Assembly: GCF_003334355.1 (NCBI RefSeq)
Contig: NZ_QOWP01000010.1
Length of the DNA stretch: 64,000 nt
Source: Escherichia coli
Lineage (GTDB): Bacteria > Pseudomonadota > Gammaproteobacteria > Enterobacterales > Enterobacteriaceae
Direction: 5' to 3' (one strand)
Shown here: positions 17,491 through 36,964 of the stretch, in pieces
Position numbering within the stretch: position 1 is the first letter of the stretch
Layout of the letters: every line of letters starts with the position of its first letter
Made by a program: the position numbers and the translations under genes
Notes under the pieces: model-generated
Database searches by the model: none
What the model was told of the DNA's origin: nothing
Seen by the model: the letters and a program-made list of their open reading frames with translations, nothing else

Positions 17491-17578
17491 TGGCGGAAGC
17501 GCAGAGATTCGAACTCTGGAACCCTTTCGGGTCGCCGGTTTTCAAGACCGGTGCCTTCAACCGCTCGGCCACACTTCC
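17491..17578 (-). tRNA. serT: tRNA-Ser (anticodon UGA)
   Basis: Reverse complement reads GGAAGTGTGGCCGAGCGGTTGAAGGCACCGGTCTTGAAAACCGGC...CTTCCGCCA: 88 nt with long variable arm, encoded CCA and UGA anticodon. Confidence 0.93.
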
Positions 17579-27895: not shown

Positions 27896-30076
27896 TTACT
27901 CTTTCTCGGAGTAACTATAACCGTAATAGTTATAGCCGTAACTGTAAGCGGTGCTGGCGCGTTTAATCACACCATTGAGGATAGCGCCTTTAATATTGAC
28001 GCCTGCCTGTTCCAGACGCTGCATTGACAAACTCACCTCTTTGGCGGTGTTCAAGCCAAAACGCGCAACCAGCAGGCTGGTGCCAACAGAACGCCCCACG
28101 ACCGCGGCATCACTCACCGCCAGCATCGGCGGCGTATCGACAATCACCAGATCGTAATGGTCGTTCGCCCATTCCAGTAATTGACGCATCCGATCGCGCA
28201 TCAGCAGTTCAGACGGGTTAGGTGGCACCTGACCGCGAGTAATCACATCAAAGCCTCCTTTGCCAAAATGCTGGATCACTTTGTTGAGCTCATCTTTACC
28301 TGCCAGATATTCCGACAAGCCATGTTCATTACTCACGGTAAACAGGTTATGCGAATAACCACGGCGTAAGTCGGCATCAATAAATAACACTTTTTGATCG
28401 GACTGGGCGATCACCGCTGCCAGAGTTGAACTGACAAACGTTTTACCACCGTCTGGCGTCGCACCGGTGATCATCAGAATGTTATTCTCCGTCTCCATCA
28501 TAGCGAAATGCAGACTGGTTCGTAGCGCACGTACGGCTTCCACAGCAGAATCCGCCGGGTTATCCGCCGCCAGGAAGGGGATATTTTTAGTACGATGGCG
28601 CTGCTGATTAGAAAATAAATTTTTCTTACGCAGACGGGTGCGTTTATCCAGCCACTCGGACATTGGGATAGTGGCATAAACGCTGATGCCGTGCTCTTCC
28701 AGTTGTTCCGGGGCTTCTACACCACGACGCAACATCGCACGCGCCAGCACGGCACCCACAGAAATAAACAGGCCAAGAATAAAACCAAGCACCACGTTCA
28801 ACGCTTTTTTCGGTTTCACTGGCTGCGGCTGAGTGACTGCCGGGTCGATAATCCGCACGTTACCAATGGCACTGGATTTCGAAATACTCAACTCCTGCTG
28901 GCGGTTAAGTAATTGCAGATATACCGCACGGCCCGCTTCTACGTCACGACTTAAACGCAACACTTCCTGTTGGGTGGAAGGCATTGCCGATACCCGCTTA
29001 TTCAGGCGTTTGCGTTCTTGCTCCAGCGTCTGGCGTTTTTCCAGCAGCGCACGATAAGTTGGGTGATCTTTCTTATACAGCTGGGAGATCTCTGCCTCGC
29101 GGAAGGTCAGCTCATTGAGTTGATTATCAACGTTCACAATCTGCTCAAGAACGGCTTTGGCTTCCAGGTTAAGGTCAACCGAATCGCGCTGCTGGCGATA
29201 AACGTTGAGTTTTTCTTCCGCTTGGTCCAGCTCGCTGCGCACTTCAGGTAACTGGCGCTGTAAGAATTCAAGGCTTTGTGAATCCTGCGCCGCCTGGCGA
29301 GCGATATTCTGTTGCAAATAGTTGTTAGCGATGCTGTTCAGAATACGAGTAATCAACTGGGGATCATCACCAGTCATGGTAAGTTCCAGCATCCCGCTTT
29401 CTTTACTGCGTTCGCTAACGGTAAAGGTTTCCTGCAATGCGTTAATCGCTTCCAGTTCGGTACGCTGGCTCAGGACAAACTGTGTTCCTGGTTTGGCCTT
29501 AATGTCCGCGATAGTCAGCGCAACGCCATCTTTTTCCAGACGCTGGCCGACCATACCATTGACGGTGAACTCTTCACCTTCCAGTGTATAGTGGCCGTTT
29601 TCCCCAACCGTGAGTGTCAGTTGCTGATCCTGACCATTCAGTTGTGGAATATGCATCCAGCTGATCGCCAGCTCACCTGGTTTTTCTTTGGTTAATCTCG
29701 CCCAGCCGCGACCCACAATCGGAAAATACTTCTGCTCAACTATGTCGCGCAGATTCAGTTCAGCAATGGTTTTACCGAGAATCATGCGCGATTGCAGCAG
29801 TTGGATCTCCGGTGCAGACTCGGGCGATGAGTTAGGGATCATATCGCTCAGGCCGCTGAGAATGGCGTTGCCCTGTTTTTGCTCAACCTGGACCAGAGTA
29901 TCTGCCTGATAAATTGGTGTGCTTAACAGCGAGTAAGCGACAGCGATCAGCGTGAATAACGCGGTCACGCTGATAATAAACTTACGGTGATCCCATAACT
30001 CGCCGACCAGACGAAGCAGATCGATCTCATTTTCCTGAGTGCTGCCTGGTGGCGTATTCATATTTTTAGTTGTCAT
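27896..30076 (-). CDS. etk: BY-kinase tyrosine autokinase Etk (726 aa), group 4 capsule/polysaccharide co-polymerase
   Basis: Full-length ORF; two transmembrane segments, Walker A/B ATPase domain and C-terminal tyrosine cluster YSYGYNYYGYSYSEKE. Confidence 0.94.
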   Translation of the reverse strand: MTTKNMNTPPGSTQENEIDLLRLVGELWDHRKFIISVTALFTLIAVAYSLLSTPIYQADTLVQVEQKQGNAILSGLSDMIPNSSPESAPEIQLLQSRMILGKTIAELNLRDIVEQKYFPIVGRGWARLTKEKPGELAISWMHIPQLNGQDQQLTLTVGENGHYTLEGEEFTVNGMVGQRLEKDGVALTIADIKAKPGTQFVLSQRTELEAINALQETFTVSERSKESGMLELTMTGDDPQLITRILNSIANNYLQQNIARQAAQDSQSLEFLQRQLPEVRSELDQAEEKLNVYRQQRDSVDLNLEAKAVLEQIVNVDNQLNELTFREAEISQLYKKDHPTYRALLEKRQTLEQERKRLNKRVSAMPSTQQEVLRLSRDVEAGRAVYLQLLNRQQELSISKSSAIGNVRIIDPAVTQPQPVKPKKALNVVLGFILGLFISVGAVLARAMLRRGVEAPEQLEEHGISVYATIPMSEWLDKRTRLRKKNLFSNQQRHRTKNIPFLAADNPADSAVEAVRALRTSLHFAMMETENNILMITGATPDGGKTFVSSTLAAVIAQSDQKVLFIDADLRRGYSHNLFTVSNEHGLSEYLAGKDELNKVIQHFGKGGFDVITRGQVPPNPSELLMRDRMRQLLEWANDHYDLVIVDTPPMLAVSDAAVVGRSVGTSLLVARFGLNTAKEVSLSMQRLEQAGVNIKGAILNGVIKRASTAYSYGYNYYGYSYSEKE

Positions 30077-30095
30077 CGTATTTTATAAACTCAAA

Positions 30096-30542
30096 TTACC
30101 GGCTGAGGCGCTTCGCCCATTCCTGACTGGCGCGCTCCAACATACCGTAGACATGTTCAAATGCGTCCTGACTTTTACGATAGGGATCCGGGATCTCTTT
30201 CTGTTCCAGCCATTGCCCAAACAGCATTGTCTTCCCGCGGACCTCGGGAGCAATTGCGGTAACCTGAGCAATATGTTCCGACTCCATTGCCAGAATCAGA
30301 TCGTAATTTCGTGCCATCTCAGCAGTGAGCTTACGTCCGGCATGTCCTTCAAGAGATACGCCATGATTAGCGGCAACATCTGCCGCTGTCGCATCTGCAG
30401 GGTGTTTTACCAGACCATGAACACCTGCCGATTTGACTTTTACGCCCGGCAGACGTTTACGCAGCAAGCGCTCGCCAATGGGCGAACGGCAAATGTTGCC
30501 GGTACAAACCACCAGGATTGAGTTAAATTTTAGTTGGGCCAT
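30096..30542 (-). CDS. etp: Low-molecular-weight protein-tyrosine phosphatase Etp (148 aa)
   Basis: Internal Met [27 protein letters not shown] (CX5R P-loop) of track ORF 30096..30554. Confidence 0.92.
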
Positions 30543-31669
30543 GTTTGAATCCACCGTGAAGTCTCTGTCAGGTCATGCACCCCGGAAATCGTCGGTACCA
30601 GCAGAGAAATCACACGGTTCCAACGAGCCAGCGGCGCGGTAGTGACATAAACAATGTCGTAAGGTTCAAGCTGGAATTCCGTTCCGAGTATCATTGCCGA
30701 TGCGTCCTTCGCATTCAGCTGATAAATATTGGCGATTTTGCCATTCTGCTTGTTTTGCGTTGCACGAATAACAAAAATCCCCGTCGCATCAGCGACATCC
30801 TGATTCATACCCTCAGCGTTACCCAGCGCTTCCGCCAGGGTCATACCGCTGCGGTCCATTTTCAGCGTGCTCTGTTTACCCACTTCACCCATCACGAAGA
30901 CTTTCAGATCATCGTTGCGCGGAATAAATAAAATATCGCCCGGGTGCAGCAGTTTGTTCTGGCGCAAGTCGCCACGCTGCATCAGCGCATAGAGGTTCAC
31001 TTTGGTCTTTACGCCATTCTGGGTGAGCACCACGTTGCGCCAGTCTGCATCTGCGGTCAGACCGCCCGCGGCGTTAATCGCATCCATGATGGTCAGAGGA
31101 ATATTGGTAATCGGCTGCTGACCCGATTTGCTGACTTCGCCGGTGACGTACGCTTTTTGCGATCGGAACGCCGCGACGCTGACATCGACTTGCGGGCTTT
31201 CAATGACTGAATCGAGACGCGCTGTAATCTCGTTGCGTACCTGGGTAAGTGTTTTCCCGGCCACTTTCAGGCGACCAATATAGGGGTAGAAAATCGCACC
31301 ATCGGCGTTAACCCAGTTGCCGGTATCACTGGCGCTACGGTATTGCCCTGCGGGGGTGGTTAGTTCCGGGTGATCCCAGACCGTAACCATCAACACATCA
31401 CCAATCCCGATACGATATTCATAGTTTGCGATTTGCTGCTCCAGCTCCGGGTTAGCCTGCGACATAATCGGTTTGGCGCGCAACTGATCAATCAATCCTG
31501 GCGTGACGGGATAGATATTGACCATTTTGTCCAGGTCATACTGATTGTCAGGTAGTTCAATGACATCCTTGTTACTGGTCGATAAATTCTGACCAGGAAC
31601 AAGGGTACATGCTGTCAAAGACAGAACAGCCAATGTCAGTACCGAAAACTTAAAAATGTTCTTTTTCAT
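30530..31669 (-). CDS. gfcE: Outer-membrane polysaccharide export lipoprotein GfcE (Wza paralogue, 379 aa)
   Basis: Internal Met [21 protein letters not shown] (lipobox) of track ORF 30530..31690; 3' end overlaps etp start by 13 bp. Confidence 0.92.
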
Positions 31670-31714
31670 TGGTTTATATTTATCAGTCAATGTAATGTTA
31701 TGAATTACGTCAGG

Positions 31715-33811
31715 TTATTGTCCAACCGGTACTTCTCGCTCTGCCGTCATTGGATAGAGCTGGTATTTGCGTGACAGCATTTGTCCACCATCACGCGTCA
31801 ATGGTGTCCACGAAACCACCGCGCGGTTGCGGTTAGGTCCAATGGTCATCAAGTCGAATGGAATCGAGATATAAAAACCTTTACTAAAGCCGCCTTCGCC
31901 GTAGTCATCTTTAGATACGTTACTGATTGCCGCCCATATCCCTACCGCCACGCCGCTGTCAAAGCGTTTGGCGACGTCGATCGTTGCGCCTTTATCTTTT
32001 GCCAGATATTGCCCAACGCTAAGTTTCATCAGTACGCCATTGAGCGTCGGCGGGTTCCAGTAAGCCGTCACGAAACCTGTTGGCGTGGAATAATCGGTGA
32101 AACGCATCATGTTGTCCCAGTCACGTTGCTTCACGTAGTTAACGTCCACACCCAGCGCCCAGCAGGCATCTAGCGGGCGATAAAGCAGCTCGGAACCGAC
32201 ACCGGCGTACATCGTTTCCAGATAACCGCCATACACCTGGCCATAGAAACCATTGCCTAAGTCAGCAAAATAGTTCGCCTGCAAGTTGTTGAGATAAACG
32301 TCATTGCGAACGTAGTCACGGATATGCGTGCGCACGCGGGGCAGGGTAGAGTCCGCGGGCAACAGCGAAGACTTAAACTTGTCGTAGTTGTTGTAAATAT
32401 TGGTGAAAATACCGCCATCAAGCAGCAGGTGGTCGGTAAACCAGTAGCGGGCACTGGACATCAGCCCCAGCTGGAACATATAGAAATCTTCCGGGCCGCC
32501 CAGCGACTGTGAAAGTGTTGGGTTGAAAGAGTAGCTAAAGCGATCTTCACGAATACGGTAGCCCCGACCAAAGGCAGAAAGATCTTCTGCTTCAACACGT
32601 TGTTGTTGAAGTTGCTCTGATTGACCAGGCGCTGTACCAGCCAGCTGTTTGCGCAGGCTGGCTACGTCGGTTTCGGTAGTCACCATCGCCATATGCTCGC
32701 GCTTTTGCGTCACGCTAATCTTCTCAACGCCTTGCGGCAGGTTATTCACCAGAATCCGGTTGGCACGATCGACCGCTTCGCGAGAATCACGGTATTTGTA
32801 TTGTTGACCAGACATATACAGCGTCTTATCGCGCAGCTGAATTTCCGGTGCTTCAAAACCTGCGTTGTACTTCAGCGCGGTAAGTTGGTTCGCTACTGTG
32901 GTGTACTGCAATCCTTCAGATTCAGGCGCAGGTTGATATGCCGGTTTTGGCGTATCGCGCAGGGCAGGGCGCAGATCGTTGAAATTGGTCCGTAACGTGA
33001 AGCCAAACATCAACGCGTTACCGCGTTCATAACTCAGGTTGAGATCTGCCCAGCTGGCAGCGCGATAAACTGCGCCGACGTTGAAATGGCTTGCCTGAGG
33101 CAGTTTGCCAGCGAAATCATTCTGGTAATTGTTGCCATCGTATTCGAGTTTCAGACGCAGGGGATTCCACGGCGTTTGATACTCAATGCCGCCAAAGATG
33201 GAAGCCGGGCCACGAAAGATATCGCTAAAGCTGATATCGCCCGCATCGTGAGACTCTGCGCGATGACAATATTTATCGCTCACCCGGCAAAACGGGTTGG
33301 TAATATTGCCCGCATTACCGGCGTAGCCCCATGCCATCCCGAGGGTGAAATCAAATGGCCCCGCTTGCTTGCTGGCCACCAGATACTCACCTTCAAACAG
33401 ACCCGTACCAGCAATATCACGTTTACCAAACGCCACTTGCGGTAGCCAGTAACCTTCTTCCCACAGGCGAAGTTTAAAATCGAATGATTTGTCTTTGTAT
33501 GACTGATCGCCGCTGAAATCTTCCCACTGGCTATATTTGCGTGTGCGCACATCCGTATAACGAATGGTGCCTTCCAGCCATGGGAACAGCGCCACGGAGG
33601 TGGAGTAGAACCGGTATTGATCGTTATCCCGGTAGTTGACGCTGAATTCACCTTCCGGTGCGATGCGCGCATTTGGCATCTGCAACAATCCTGTGCCGCC
33701 AAAGTCTGATTGCGACGAACCCAGCGGATCCGGGTAGGTTAATACTTCAGCATGACAGGCACTGGAGACGGCAATGGCCAGGCAGCTTAAAAGATAAGAA
33801 TTCTTCTTCAT
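31715..33811 (-). CDS. gfcD: Outer-membrane beta-barrel protein GfcD (698 aa)
   Basis: Full-length ORF with signal peptide and aromatic-rich C-terminus. Confidence 0.9.
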
Positions 33812-34557
33812 CAGTCAGGAACACGTTGCGTTAAAACAGACACAATCTGGTCATTTAAATCAGCATATTTTTCGGGCAGTACATGCGCAGAAAAGCCCAA
33901 CCAAAGCTGGCTGCCAGGCGGTGGTTCCACATGTCTTTTATTCCACAGGGCAACAGGGGCGACGACAGTCTCACCCTCAGGCGTAATCACCATAACGTTA
34001 TTCTTGTCCGCGCCTGCAAGGCGGGGGTGATCTTGCAGATAATCGGTAACGCTACGGCCTGCCTGCCAGGGCAATTGCCCGGCCCCAGAAACCGCACCCA
34101 GCAGAGTAATAGTCACCGGACGCTGTACGGTATAGAGCGTATAGTCCCCGACCAACGGGGGATTGCTGTTCTCATCCACTCGTACAAAATCAGGGTCCAG
34201 TTTGACCGGTAAGCGACCAGTGATATTGAGATTGAGTAACTGCTGGCGCACGGATTTAATCGTTGCCGCCACATCGTCGTCAGCTTCTGCTTCCCAGGAA
34301 GCAAGCTGTGCCATGACATGTTGGTAGTCTTTAAGCGCTTTAGCTTTCGCCGCAGAGTCGGTCAGCAAGGCACCAGGCCACCAGAGGCGATCGCGCAGTT
34401 GCGGTTGTGTCACCAACTGGACAACATTTTCCATGGGGCCAACGGAAAGTGTCTGTTGTTCGCCAGGCAGATAAATAGTCACCGTTCCTTGCGCAAAGGC
34501 ATGGGGTGTCATTACGTAAAGTACGCTGGCAATGAAATACGACTGTAATTTATTCAT
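33811..34557 (-). CDS. gfcC: Periplasmic protein GfcC (248 aa)
   Basis: Full-length ORF with signal peptide; 1-bp overlap with gfcD. Confidence 0.9.
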
Positions 34558-35198
34558 GGTGCGGGTTTAAGAAACGTCATTTCTACGGGAATAACCCCTG
34601 CGCCTAACATTTGCCGACTTTGACGAACCTGGCCAGTAGCCGAATCGACCCAGAATGTGTTTTGCCACTGTTTTTCTGGCCGCGTGGAAGTCACCTCTTC
34701 CTGCCAGACATTACACAGCACATTACGACCCGCAATATTCAGCGTCTCTAATCCAGCAAAGGAAAAAGTAGAACTCAGGGTCGCAGAGCGAAAATGGTTG
34801 TCTTCACTCCAGAGAATATCGCGCGTCCAGCGGCTGCCATCTTTTATTGCCAGCGCGTTACGCAGAGGGTCCTGCCCGGAATTTGTCACTTCCAGCAGAT
34901 TATTATTAAGTTTGACGGTTTTTAAAAGACGTCCATTGTGGGTAACCAGCATGGCGTTATCCTGGGATAACCATTTGCTTTGTTCTTGTTCTATATATCC
35001 CAGTACCACAAAGATTCGTTGCCCTTCATTAAGGCGTAAATACATAGTGGAATAAGGCAACGCCTGGATCTGCTGATCCGCTACGGTGATATCCTGATTA
35101 TCGAAAAGGCTGGCGCGAAATGTATCGACCATACTTTGCTGGCTGTGCGTACATCCCGCAAGAAATAGTGCGAAAATCGATAAAATAAGAGGGCGCAC
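34554..35198 (-). CDS. gfcB: Lipoprotein GfcB (214 aa)
   Basis: Full-length ORF with lipobox LAGC; ATGA overlap with gfcC. Confidence 0.9.
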   Translation of the reverse strand: MRPLILSIFALFLAGCTHSQQSMVDTFRASLFDNQDITVADQQIQALPYSTMYLRLNEGQRIFVVLGYIEQEQSKWLSQDNAMLVTHNGRLLKTVKLNNNLLEVTNSGQDPLRNALAIKDGSRWTRDILWSEDNHFRSATLSSTFSFAGLETLNIAGRNVLCNVWQEEVTSTRPEKQWQNTFWVDSATGQVRQSRQMLGAGVIPVEMTFLKPAP

Positions 35199-35304
35199 CT
35201 TTAATCCTTGAAAGGTTAATTAAAAAAATGCAAATCTCTAAAGCCCGGTACGAATATCGCAACCGGGTATCATTTAACTTTAATTTCGACGCGTTAAAGC
35301 AGTA

Positions 35305-35613
35305 TTAGCGTGTAGTGGACGTGGTGGTTGAGGTGTTATGAGAACCGCCATCGCCACTGTCATTTGCTGCAACAACTGCCAACGTCGCCACACCAACAGC
35401 CGTTGCCACACCGACAACTGTCGCCGTGCCGACAGCGCCAGCAGCCACGCCACCAGTGGTAGTAGCAGCAGTCGTGGTTGCGCCGGTAGTGGTCGTTGTG
35501 GTGCCAGTAGTACCCGTCGTTGCATCGGTCCCGTTTGTTGCTTCAGGGGCAGCAAACGCAGCTGGCGTCGTCAACATGAAGGCCATAAGGATTGCAGAAA
35601 GCTTGTGTTTCAT
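35305..35613 (-). CDS. gfcA: Thr/Ala/Gly-rich small secreted protein GfcA (101 aa)
   Basis: Internal Met MKHKLSAILMAFMLTTPAAFA of track ORF 35305..35631; low-complexity TTGTTGTTTTTTGATTTAATTTGG core. Confidence 0.88.
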   Translation of the reverse strand: MKHKLSAILMAFMLTTPAAFAAPEATNGTDATTGTTGTTTTTTGATTTAATTTGGVAAGAVGTATVVGVATAVGVATLAVVAANDSGDGGSHNTSTTTSTTR

Positions 35614-36054
35614 AACTTTTCCTTTATTCATCGCATGGACAATACGTACGCTTGAGATCAGGATTGTCTACTTTGAGTATAACATCCTTGTGAAATCTCC
35701 CTTTCCTCATACCGCTTGCACTATATACTGCGGGTAGGAAAGGCGCGCAGAGGGAAATATAAGATTGTTAACTATCCCCCTCTGGAAATACGACTTGTGA
35801 GCATAAGATAAATCTTAGCAAAATACGAATTAAAGATAAGGAAATTGTTACGAAAGCTATTAATTATTGTTGGTAATATAGTTTTAAGTGGTACTATAAC
35901 TGGCTGTTAAATGGCATTTATAACTATTAGGTGCAGAGATATTCGCTTAAATGGATTAGTTTCTTTGTGGAAAAGTAACTGATGTTATAATGTATGATGT
36001 TGACTATTGCACTATTCCAATAAAACCAGTCAGCTTTAAACAAGCAGCGTCATA

Positions 36055-36267
36055 TTAAGAGAGATAAACATTTGCCGCTGTTGGTCCTCGCAGGCCATTT
36101 ACGCGGCAAAATTCCACACGTAATCCTGGTATAAGCACTTCTGCGTCGCGGGGAGTGAATGCGGAAATATGGACCTGAACTTCTTTACGACCGTCGGAGG
36201 GGATAATGAATCCTTTGCCGCTTTTGCGATCAAAGGTTTTGACAATTCCTGTCATTTTACGGGACAA
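36055..36267 (-). CDS. cspH: CspA-family cold-shock-like protein CspH (70 aa)
   Basis: Full-length cold-shock domain [40 protein letters not shown]. Confidence 0.92.
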
Positions 36268-36552
36268 ACAAATTCCTTACTGAAAATACTGCGCTGCACT
36301 ATACGGGGTTAATAAAATAAAGCCAGCGATATTTAAGACCGCCGGACGGCTAAAATAAAATTTGCTTAATCTCAATTATCATGCGTTAATAGCTGCGTCG
36401 GTTTGAAAGACAGACAGCATACAAAGTAGTTTACTAAAGCAGTTCTCATTATCAGGCATTATCCCCTTCTTTTGAGTCTCTCTCCTGAACACTAAGTAGT
36501 TTCTGTATTAAAGCCCTGTTTGCCGAAAGGCCCAAAATGAAGGAAGTAAAAT

Positions 36553-36765
36553 ATGTCTAATAAAATGACTGGTTTAGTAAAATGGTTTAACGCAGATAAA
36601 GGTTTTGGCTTTATCACTCCTGATGATGGCAGCAAAGACGTTTTCGTCCATTTCACCGCCATCCAGAGCAATGAATTCCGCACGCTGAACGAAAATCAGA
36701 AAGTTGAATTTTCTATTGAGCAGGGGCAACGTGGCCCCGCGGCAGCGAACGTTGTTACGCTCTAA
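36553..36765 (+). CDS. cspG: Cold-shock protein CspG (70 aa)
   Basis: Full-length cold-shock domain [41 protein letters not shown] with RNP motifs. Confidence 0.95.
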
Positions 36766-36964
36766 GGTTGCCATTATTACTCAACATCTCCATTTCCGCT
36801 GTCCATGTTGTCATGGTTCACAGTACCGCACATCGGCATTCGATGTGACGGAGCGAAACCCTTTGGGCGCTAAGTGTATTTTTTGTAAATCGACGATGAT
36901 CACCTTTGATAACGTCGCGCTGCAAATACGCACTGACCATGCGCCGCTGGATTTCACAAAATAA
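36704..36964 (+). CDS. ymcF: Small Cys-rich ORF overlapping the cspG 3' end (ymcF-like); true start uncertain (no in-frame ATG; TTG at 36704/36752, GTG at 36731)
   Basis: Open frame 36704..36964 encoding ...[32 protein letters not shown]... (paired Cys motifs); position matches the small gene annotated between cspG and ymcE in E. coli. Confidence 0.45.

Follow-up and report, generated by a model that had tools for sequence, protein, structure and literature searches.

An uninterrupted, IS1-free interval between gfcA and cspH upstream of the group 4 capsule operon in a non-K-12 Escherichia coli genome

The gfc-etp-etk locus and the unoccupied IS1 target

The window, by which we mean the whole 64-kb stretch of DNA that was analysed, is collinear with positions 1,014,135-1,078,916 of E. 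coli K-12 MG1655, from pqiB to putA. It contains the gfc-etp-etk capsule operon, the upstream neighbour cspH and the interval that separates the two, together with four RNA elements that were found as Rfam matches at the positions expected from K-12:

27896..35613, minus strand: gfcA, gfcB, gfcC, gfcD, gfcE, etp and etk, seven full-length open reading frames without internal stops
35305..35613, minus strand: gfcA, encoding a Thr/Ala-rich product of 102 amino acids, with its ATG at 35613
35614..36054, minus strand: gfcA-cspH intergenic interval, 441 bp, 35% G+C, IS-free
36055..36267, minus strand: cspH, upstream neighbour, co-directional with gfc
36397..36819, plus strand: cspA-type thermoregulator leader of cspG (Rfam)
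47502..47580, minus strand: naRNA4 (CssrE; Rfam)
53457..53499, minus strand: ES036 (CssrF; Rfam)
17494..17578, minus strand: tRNA-Ser (serT; Rfam)

The names gfcA-E, etp, etk and cspH agree with the RefSeq annotation of near-identical genomes; an alternative naming of the operon is ymcDCBA-yccZ-etp-etk. The seven genes are co-oriented between appA and cspH, collinear with MG1655 b0981-b0987 and with enteropathogenic E. coli (EPEC) E2348/69, and their products are 95-100% identical to the K-12 and E2348/69 counterparts. The block thus lies where the earlier note on this DNA had placed it, with all seven reading frames intact. The genes from gfcA to etk form one transcript and capsule production requires every one of them (PMC8592465, PMC4368438). 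In S. flexneri the operon is inactivated by deletion of a 14-bp segment of etk (PMC4368438); this segment is present in the window, at nt 135 of etk. Because the gfc locus is structurally complete and uninterrupted, the source strain is, judged from its sequence, a candidate group 4 capsule producer, provided that a suitable O-antigen cluster is also present.

Within gfcA, an in-frame 3-bp insertion at 35464..35466 gives the Thr/Ala-rich segment one Ala codon more than in K-12, O157 and EPEC. The extra codon is shared with strain PSS-12.

The interval 35614..36054 comprises the 3' flank of cspH, the presumed gfc promoter and the 5' leader of gfcA. Its G+C content is 35.1%, compared with 51.6% for the whole window, and reaches a trough of 26-32% at 35814..36013. 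The largest open reading frames within it encode 31 and 38 amino acids, in keeping with the earlier description of about 440 bp of AT-rich, non-coding DNA that lacks a transposase reading frame.

In MG1655 the same interval is occupied by IS1D, a 768-bp element with insA/insB (insA4/insB4) that is oriented with insA directed away from gfcA and is bordered by a duplicated target. The K-12 insertion had been described correctly in the earlier note, and its absence here is confirmed: a blastn search of all 64 kb with MG1655 IS1D returned chance matches only (≤28 bp), and a degenerate IS1 terminal-repeat pattern, allowing up to three mismatches, had no match in the 64 kb. When the window is aligned to MG1655, the matches to the left and to the right of IS1D share 9 bp of the window, 35638..35646, and this overlap defines the insertion point:

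35638..35646, no strand assigned: unoccupied IS1 target GACAATACG, present as a single copy; in K-12 it is duplicated and flanks IS1D on both sides

The target precedes the gfcA ATG by 25-33 nt, with the Shine-Dalgarno region following closely. Since the window has one copy of GACAATACG where K-12 has a flanking duplication, 35638..35646 is cleanly unoccupied and bears no scar. With the target present once and the window free of IS1 DNA, the insertion allele of the K-12/B type is absent. The earlier note had held that an excised IS1 with a target-site scar would speak against its reading; what is found is a single target copy and no remnant. More generally, the upstream region is without mobile-element interruption and gives a gap-free, full-length match to IS-free genomes.

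Candidate promoter, predicted leader and expression of the operon

The interval was compared in five sequences, namely the window, K-12 (IS1 removed), the O68:H12 strain 97.3, O157 ATCC 43894 and EPEC E2348/69. It is 441 bp long, with zero indels, in all of them. The alignment to MG1655 and to EPEC and O157, which the earlier note had proposed as a check on its claim of an intact interval, supports that claim at the sequence level: the window is identical to K-12 minus IS1 at 438 of the 441 positions (99.3%), and it is indel-free against O157 and EPEC, at 93.4-93.7% identity. Variation among the window, K-12, O157 and EPEC is unevenly distributed, with one variable column in the 98 bp proximal to gfcA compared with 41 in the other 343 bp. 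Three features of this region are relevant to transcription:

35614..35711, minus strand: conserved proximal block, containing the Shine-Dalgarno region (AAGGAAAAG), the IS1 target and the candidate -10
35684..35676, minus strand: candidate extended -10, TGtTATACT, from a relaxed scan and conservation; poor -35
35784-35748 and 35743-35700, minus strand: two adjacent stable hairpins, MFE -35.4 kcal/mol, z = -3.2

A standard sigma-70 consensus scan of 35500..36300 returned no promoters (1.9 expected by chance), a terminator scan of the same region returned none, and a mapped gfcA transcription start was not found in the papers available to us. The candidate -10 lies about 63 nt before the gfcA ATG, within the near-invariant 98-bp block. 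We put it forward as a best guess for the gfc promoter element, its position being suggested by the relaxed scan and by conservation.

The hairpins at 35700..35784 are directly upstream of the candidate -10. They consist of a 12-bp stem (35784-35748) and a composite stem (35743-35700), and none of 200 shuffled sequences was as stable. They could represent a terminator of cspH or a leader structure. One of the O157/EPEC substitutions converts a G-U pair to A-U; others disrupt pairing in the second hairpin. A cspH terminator immediately after the stop codon was rejected, the minus-strand fold of 35900..36060 being no more stable than shuffled sequences (z = +0.72). Also rejected was an RfaH ops/JUMPStart element in the leader: AGCGGTATGAGG (~35714..35703, minus strand) resembles GGCGGTAGnnTG by eye, with two mismatches to the consensus, and its C is replaced by T in O157 and by A in EPEC. 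A footprint search with exact 22-mers, covering one genome per species, gave no matches; the E. coli representative in this set may be one that lacks the operon.

Transcription would be expected to begin inside 35614..36054 on the minus strand and to run leftwards, by way of a short leader, into gfcA. If it starts near 35669, as predicted from the candidate -10, the leader would measure about 55 nt and the K-12 IS1 would fall at about +24 to +32. A promoter elsewhere in the interval would likewise be upstream of the insertion point. Either way, the element of K-12, E. coli B and some wild relatives lies between the promoter and the ribosome-binding site and so parts the operon from the promoter. 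Insertions of IS1 are polar, and we infer that the same holds at this locus. In the window, nothing intervenes between the presumed promoter and the operon, which stays under whatever native control operates on it; transcription and capsule formation would depend on regulators and on the O-antigen (Wzx/Wzy) cluster.

The suggestion in the earlier note that the operon may be expressed from its native promoter was overstated to the extent that it rested on the missing IS1, which is no predictor of expression. In one study, enterohaemorrhagic E. coli (EHEC), which is without this IS1, contained ~30-fold less gfcA mRNA than EPEC and showed no capsule by the stain used (PMC3853201). An O26 EHEC lacked a capsule, and EHEC is reported to require Ler, the LEE island regulator, for capsule expression (PMC10932389). 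Conversely, K-12 shows etk-dependent phenotypes despite its IS1 (PMC2516531). Each of two strains with demonstrated capsule production departs from the window at 28-29 positions of the interval; these two differ ~30-fold in gfcA mRNA (PMC3853201), so that sequence intactness says little about activity. Capsule formation also needs a Wzx/Wzy-dependent O-antigen cluster to supply the polymer, and the O-antigen locus is outside the 64-kb window. An uninterrupted upstream region is no proof of an active capsule operon.

These EHEC precedents give weight to the view that the interval is intact and the operon nonetheless silent, or nearly so, perhaps through repression by nucleoid proteins acting on the AT-rich upstream DNA or through a missing activator. 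The base composition of the interval, with its marked trough, and the lack of a consensus promoter point in the same direction. Set against this, in S. sonnei and EPEC the native upstream sequence does drive the operon (PMC4368438, PMC3853201). We give a silent operon only slightly less than even weight. It is compatible with our preferred explanation, an ordinary uninterrupted interval, and differs from it in outcome alone; the absence of IS1 would then be without phenotypic consequence.

Frequency and origin of the IS-free form

The IS-free form was counted in 5,426 complete E. coli genomes with a 200-bp probe that has the insertion point at its centre. The uninterrupted junction was present in 3,180 of them, in all sampled lineages, including strains W and HS and O157. 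The K-12-type junction, counted with a 200-bp probe over the K-12 gfcA/IS1 junction (≥80% of its length matched), was present in 414 genomes, which include K-12/B laboratory strains and wild isolates from pigs, poultry and humans. An otherwise broken junction accounts for about 22 genomes (3,616 with any match, less the 3,180 and the 414). The IS-free form thus makes up ~88% of the gfc-bearing complete genomes (3,180 of ~3,600), and absence of IS1 is the default condition, not a distinguishing feature. Because the IS-free state is both the majority state and common to distant lineages, the empty site is most simply taken as ancestral. As the ordinary majority allele, an IS-free gfc upstream region matters little beyond annotation.

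Several other states of the locus were encountered in these genomes. About 1,800 of the 5,426, for example Nissle 1917 (EcN), are without gfcABCDE-etp-etk and the whole interval; in such operon-less genomes the match to the window starts at the cspH stop codon (36054/36057) and appA is annotated adjacent. A K-12-type IS1 at 35638-35646 is carried by ETEC1730, MB20 and FDN-24, with 4, 9 and 0 substitutions, respectively, relative to IS1D. P276M has IS1 at a second site (35807-35815), 19SZHZ886Rt has IS903B at 35670-35678, spanning the candidate -10, and PSS-12, the complete genome closest to the window, has IS3 within gfcA (35458-35467). ISKpn26 is annotated in or near the gfcA-cspH region of 23CRST014.

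With diverse insertion sequences in a region extending from gfcA to ~200 bp upstream, and the operon lost in about one-third of genomes, the window might be viewed as an uninterrupted example of a locus subject to recurrent inactivation in commensal-type E. coli. We consider this reading speculative and rather doubtful. Were it to reflect selection against group 4 capsule export in some niches and not the preference of insertion sequences for AT-rich DNA, an interruption here would serve as a marker of capsule state across E. coli.

The window differs from MG1655 by ~500 substitutions, identity being 99.76% on the left side of the IS1 site and 98.48% on its right side, as anticipated by the earlier assignment to a non-K-12 lineage. 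IS1D is the sole structural difference between the two, the remaining indels being of 1-3 bp. The closest complete genomes, PSS-12, MLI023K1 and MLI023K2, are 99.9% identical over 24 kb, none of them being an exact match, and have sizes of ~4.6-4.7 Mb. The source is neither a K-12 nor an E. coli B strain, the latter because the B strain C3029 carries the IS1. Elsewhere in the window, divergence from MG1655 has a local peak in the yccE region (48000..50100), with several indels of 1-3 bp and 112 substitutions in one 2-kb bin, compared with 1-30 in most others.

An ancestral empty site has to be weighed against a secondary one, in which a K-12-type IS1 was once present and the lineage of the window lost it, either through precise excision or through recombination with an IS-free allele. 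Close relatives of the same phylogroup (ETEC1730, MB20, FDN-24 and E. coli B C3029) carry IS1 at exactly this position and in the same orientation, the window is 99.3-99.8% identical to IS1-bearing relatives around the site, and a perfectly precise excision would leave the same sequence as a site that was never occupied. However, there is no scar, the 9-bp target is present in one copy and no IS1 remnant is found. The empty site is shared with O157, EPEC and the 3,180 genomes counted above. The haplotype around the site also departs from that of strains with the IS1, at four sites or indels (35464-66, 35524, 35827 and 35885), so the window does not fall within that group. IS1 is seldom excised precisely. 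Loss of a former IS1 is unparsimonious and improbable, and we conclude that the strain is very probably a non-K-12, non-B E. coli, closest to commensal-type strains with small genomes, in which the interval is ordinary, ancestral and uninterrupted.

That the interval instead harbours a gene for a small protein or small RNA missed by annotation is scarcely credible: a 38-residue reading frame (35927..36043, minus strand) and a 31-residue one (35716..35811, plus strand) are open in four lineages and the two hairpins at 35700..35784 are stable, but both frames start with TTG, the start codon of the shorter one is lost in EPEC, ~9 of the 38 residues of the longer one differ in O157 and EPEC, and no Rfam family matches within the interval, the nearest match being the cspG thermoregulator at 36397..36819. 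As the substitutions are mostly amino-acid-changing, both frames were rejected as genes.

Comparison with K-12, EPEC and EHEC O157:H7

The IS1 in the ymc/gfc promoter region of K-12 is described as missing from pathogenic strains (PMC2516531; PMC12428005); both the insertion and its absence in pathogens have been known since the operon was described. Set beside K-12 MG1655, the window lacks the 768-bp IS1D and the 9-bp duplication found there 25-33 nt before the gfcA ATG. With IS1 and the second target copy taken out of K-12, the two intervals share the same 9-bp target and differ at only 35827, 35885 and 36009. The gfcB, gfcE and etp products of K-12 match those of the window exactly and the other four differ at 1-5 positions; gfcA of the window has the one extra in-frame Ala codon.

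EPEC O127:H6 E2348/69 has the same gene order (appA / etk-etp-gfcEDCBA / cspH) and an interval of the same length, 441 bp, with no insertion sequence. There are 28 substitutions in the interval relative to the window (93.65% identity), mostly distal to gfcA. Among the proteins, etp and gfcE are identical, gfcA matches at 98 of 103 positions and etk at 723 of 727. Capsule has been demonstrated for EPEC (PMC8592465, PMC3853201), and E2348/69 serves as the reference producer.

The upstream region of EHEC O157:H7 is likewise IS-free and 441 bp long. It has 29 substitutions relative to the window (93.4% identity) and the same conserved proximal block. Expression of gfcA in EHEC O157:H7 is reported to be low (PMC3853201), and an IS-free upstream region is thus not equivalent to an active one.
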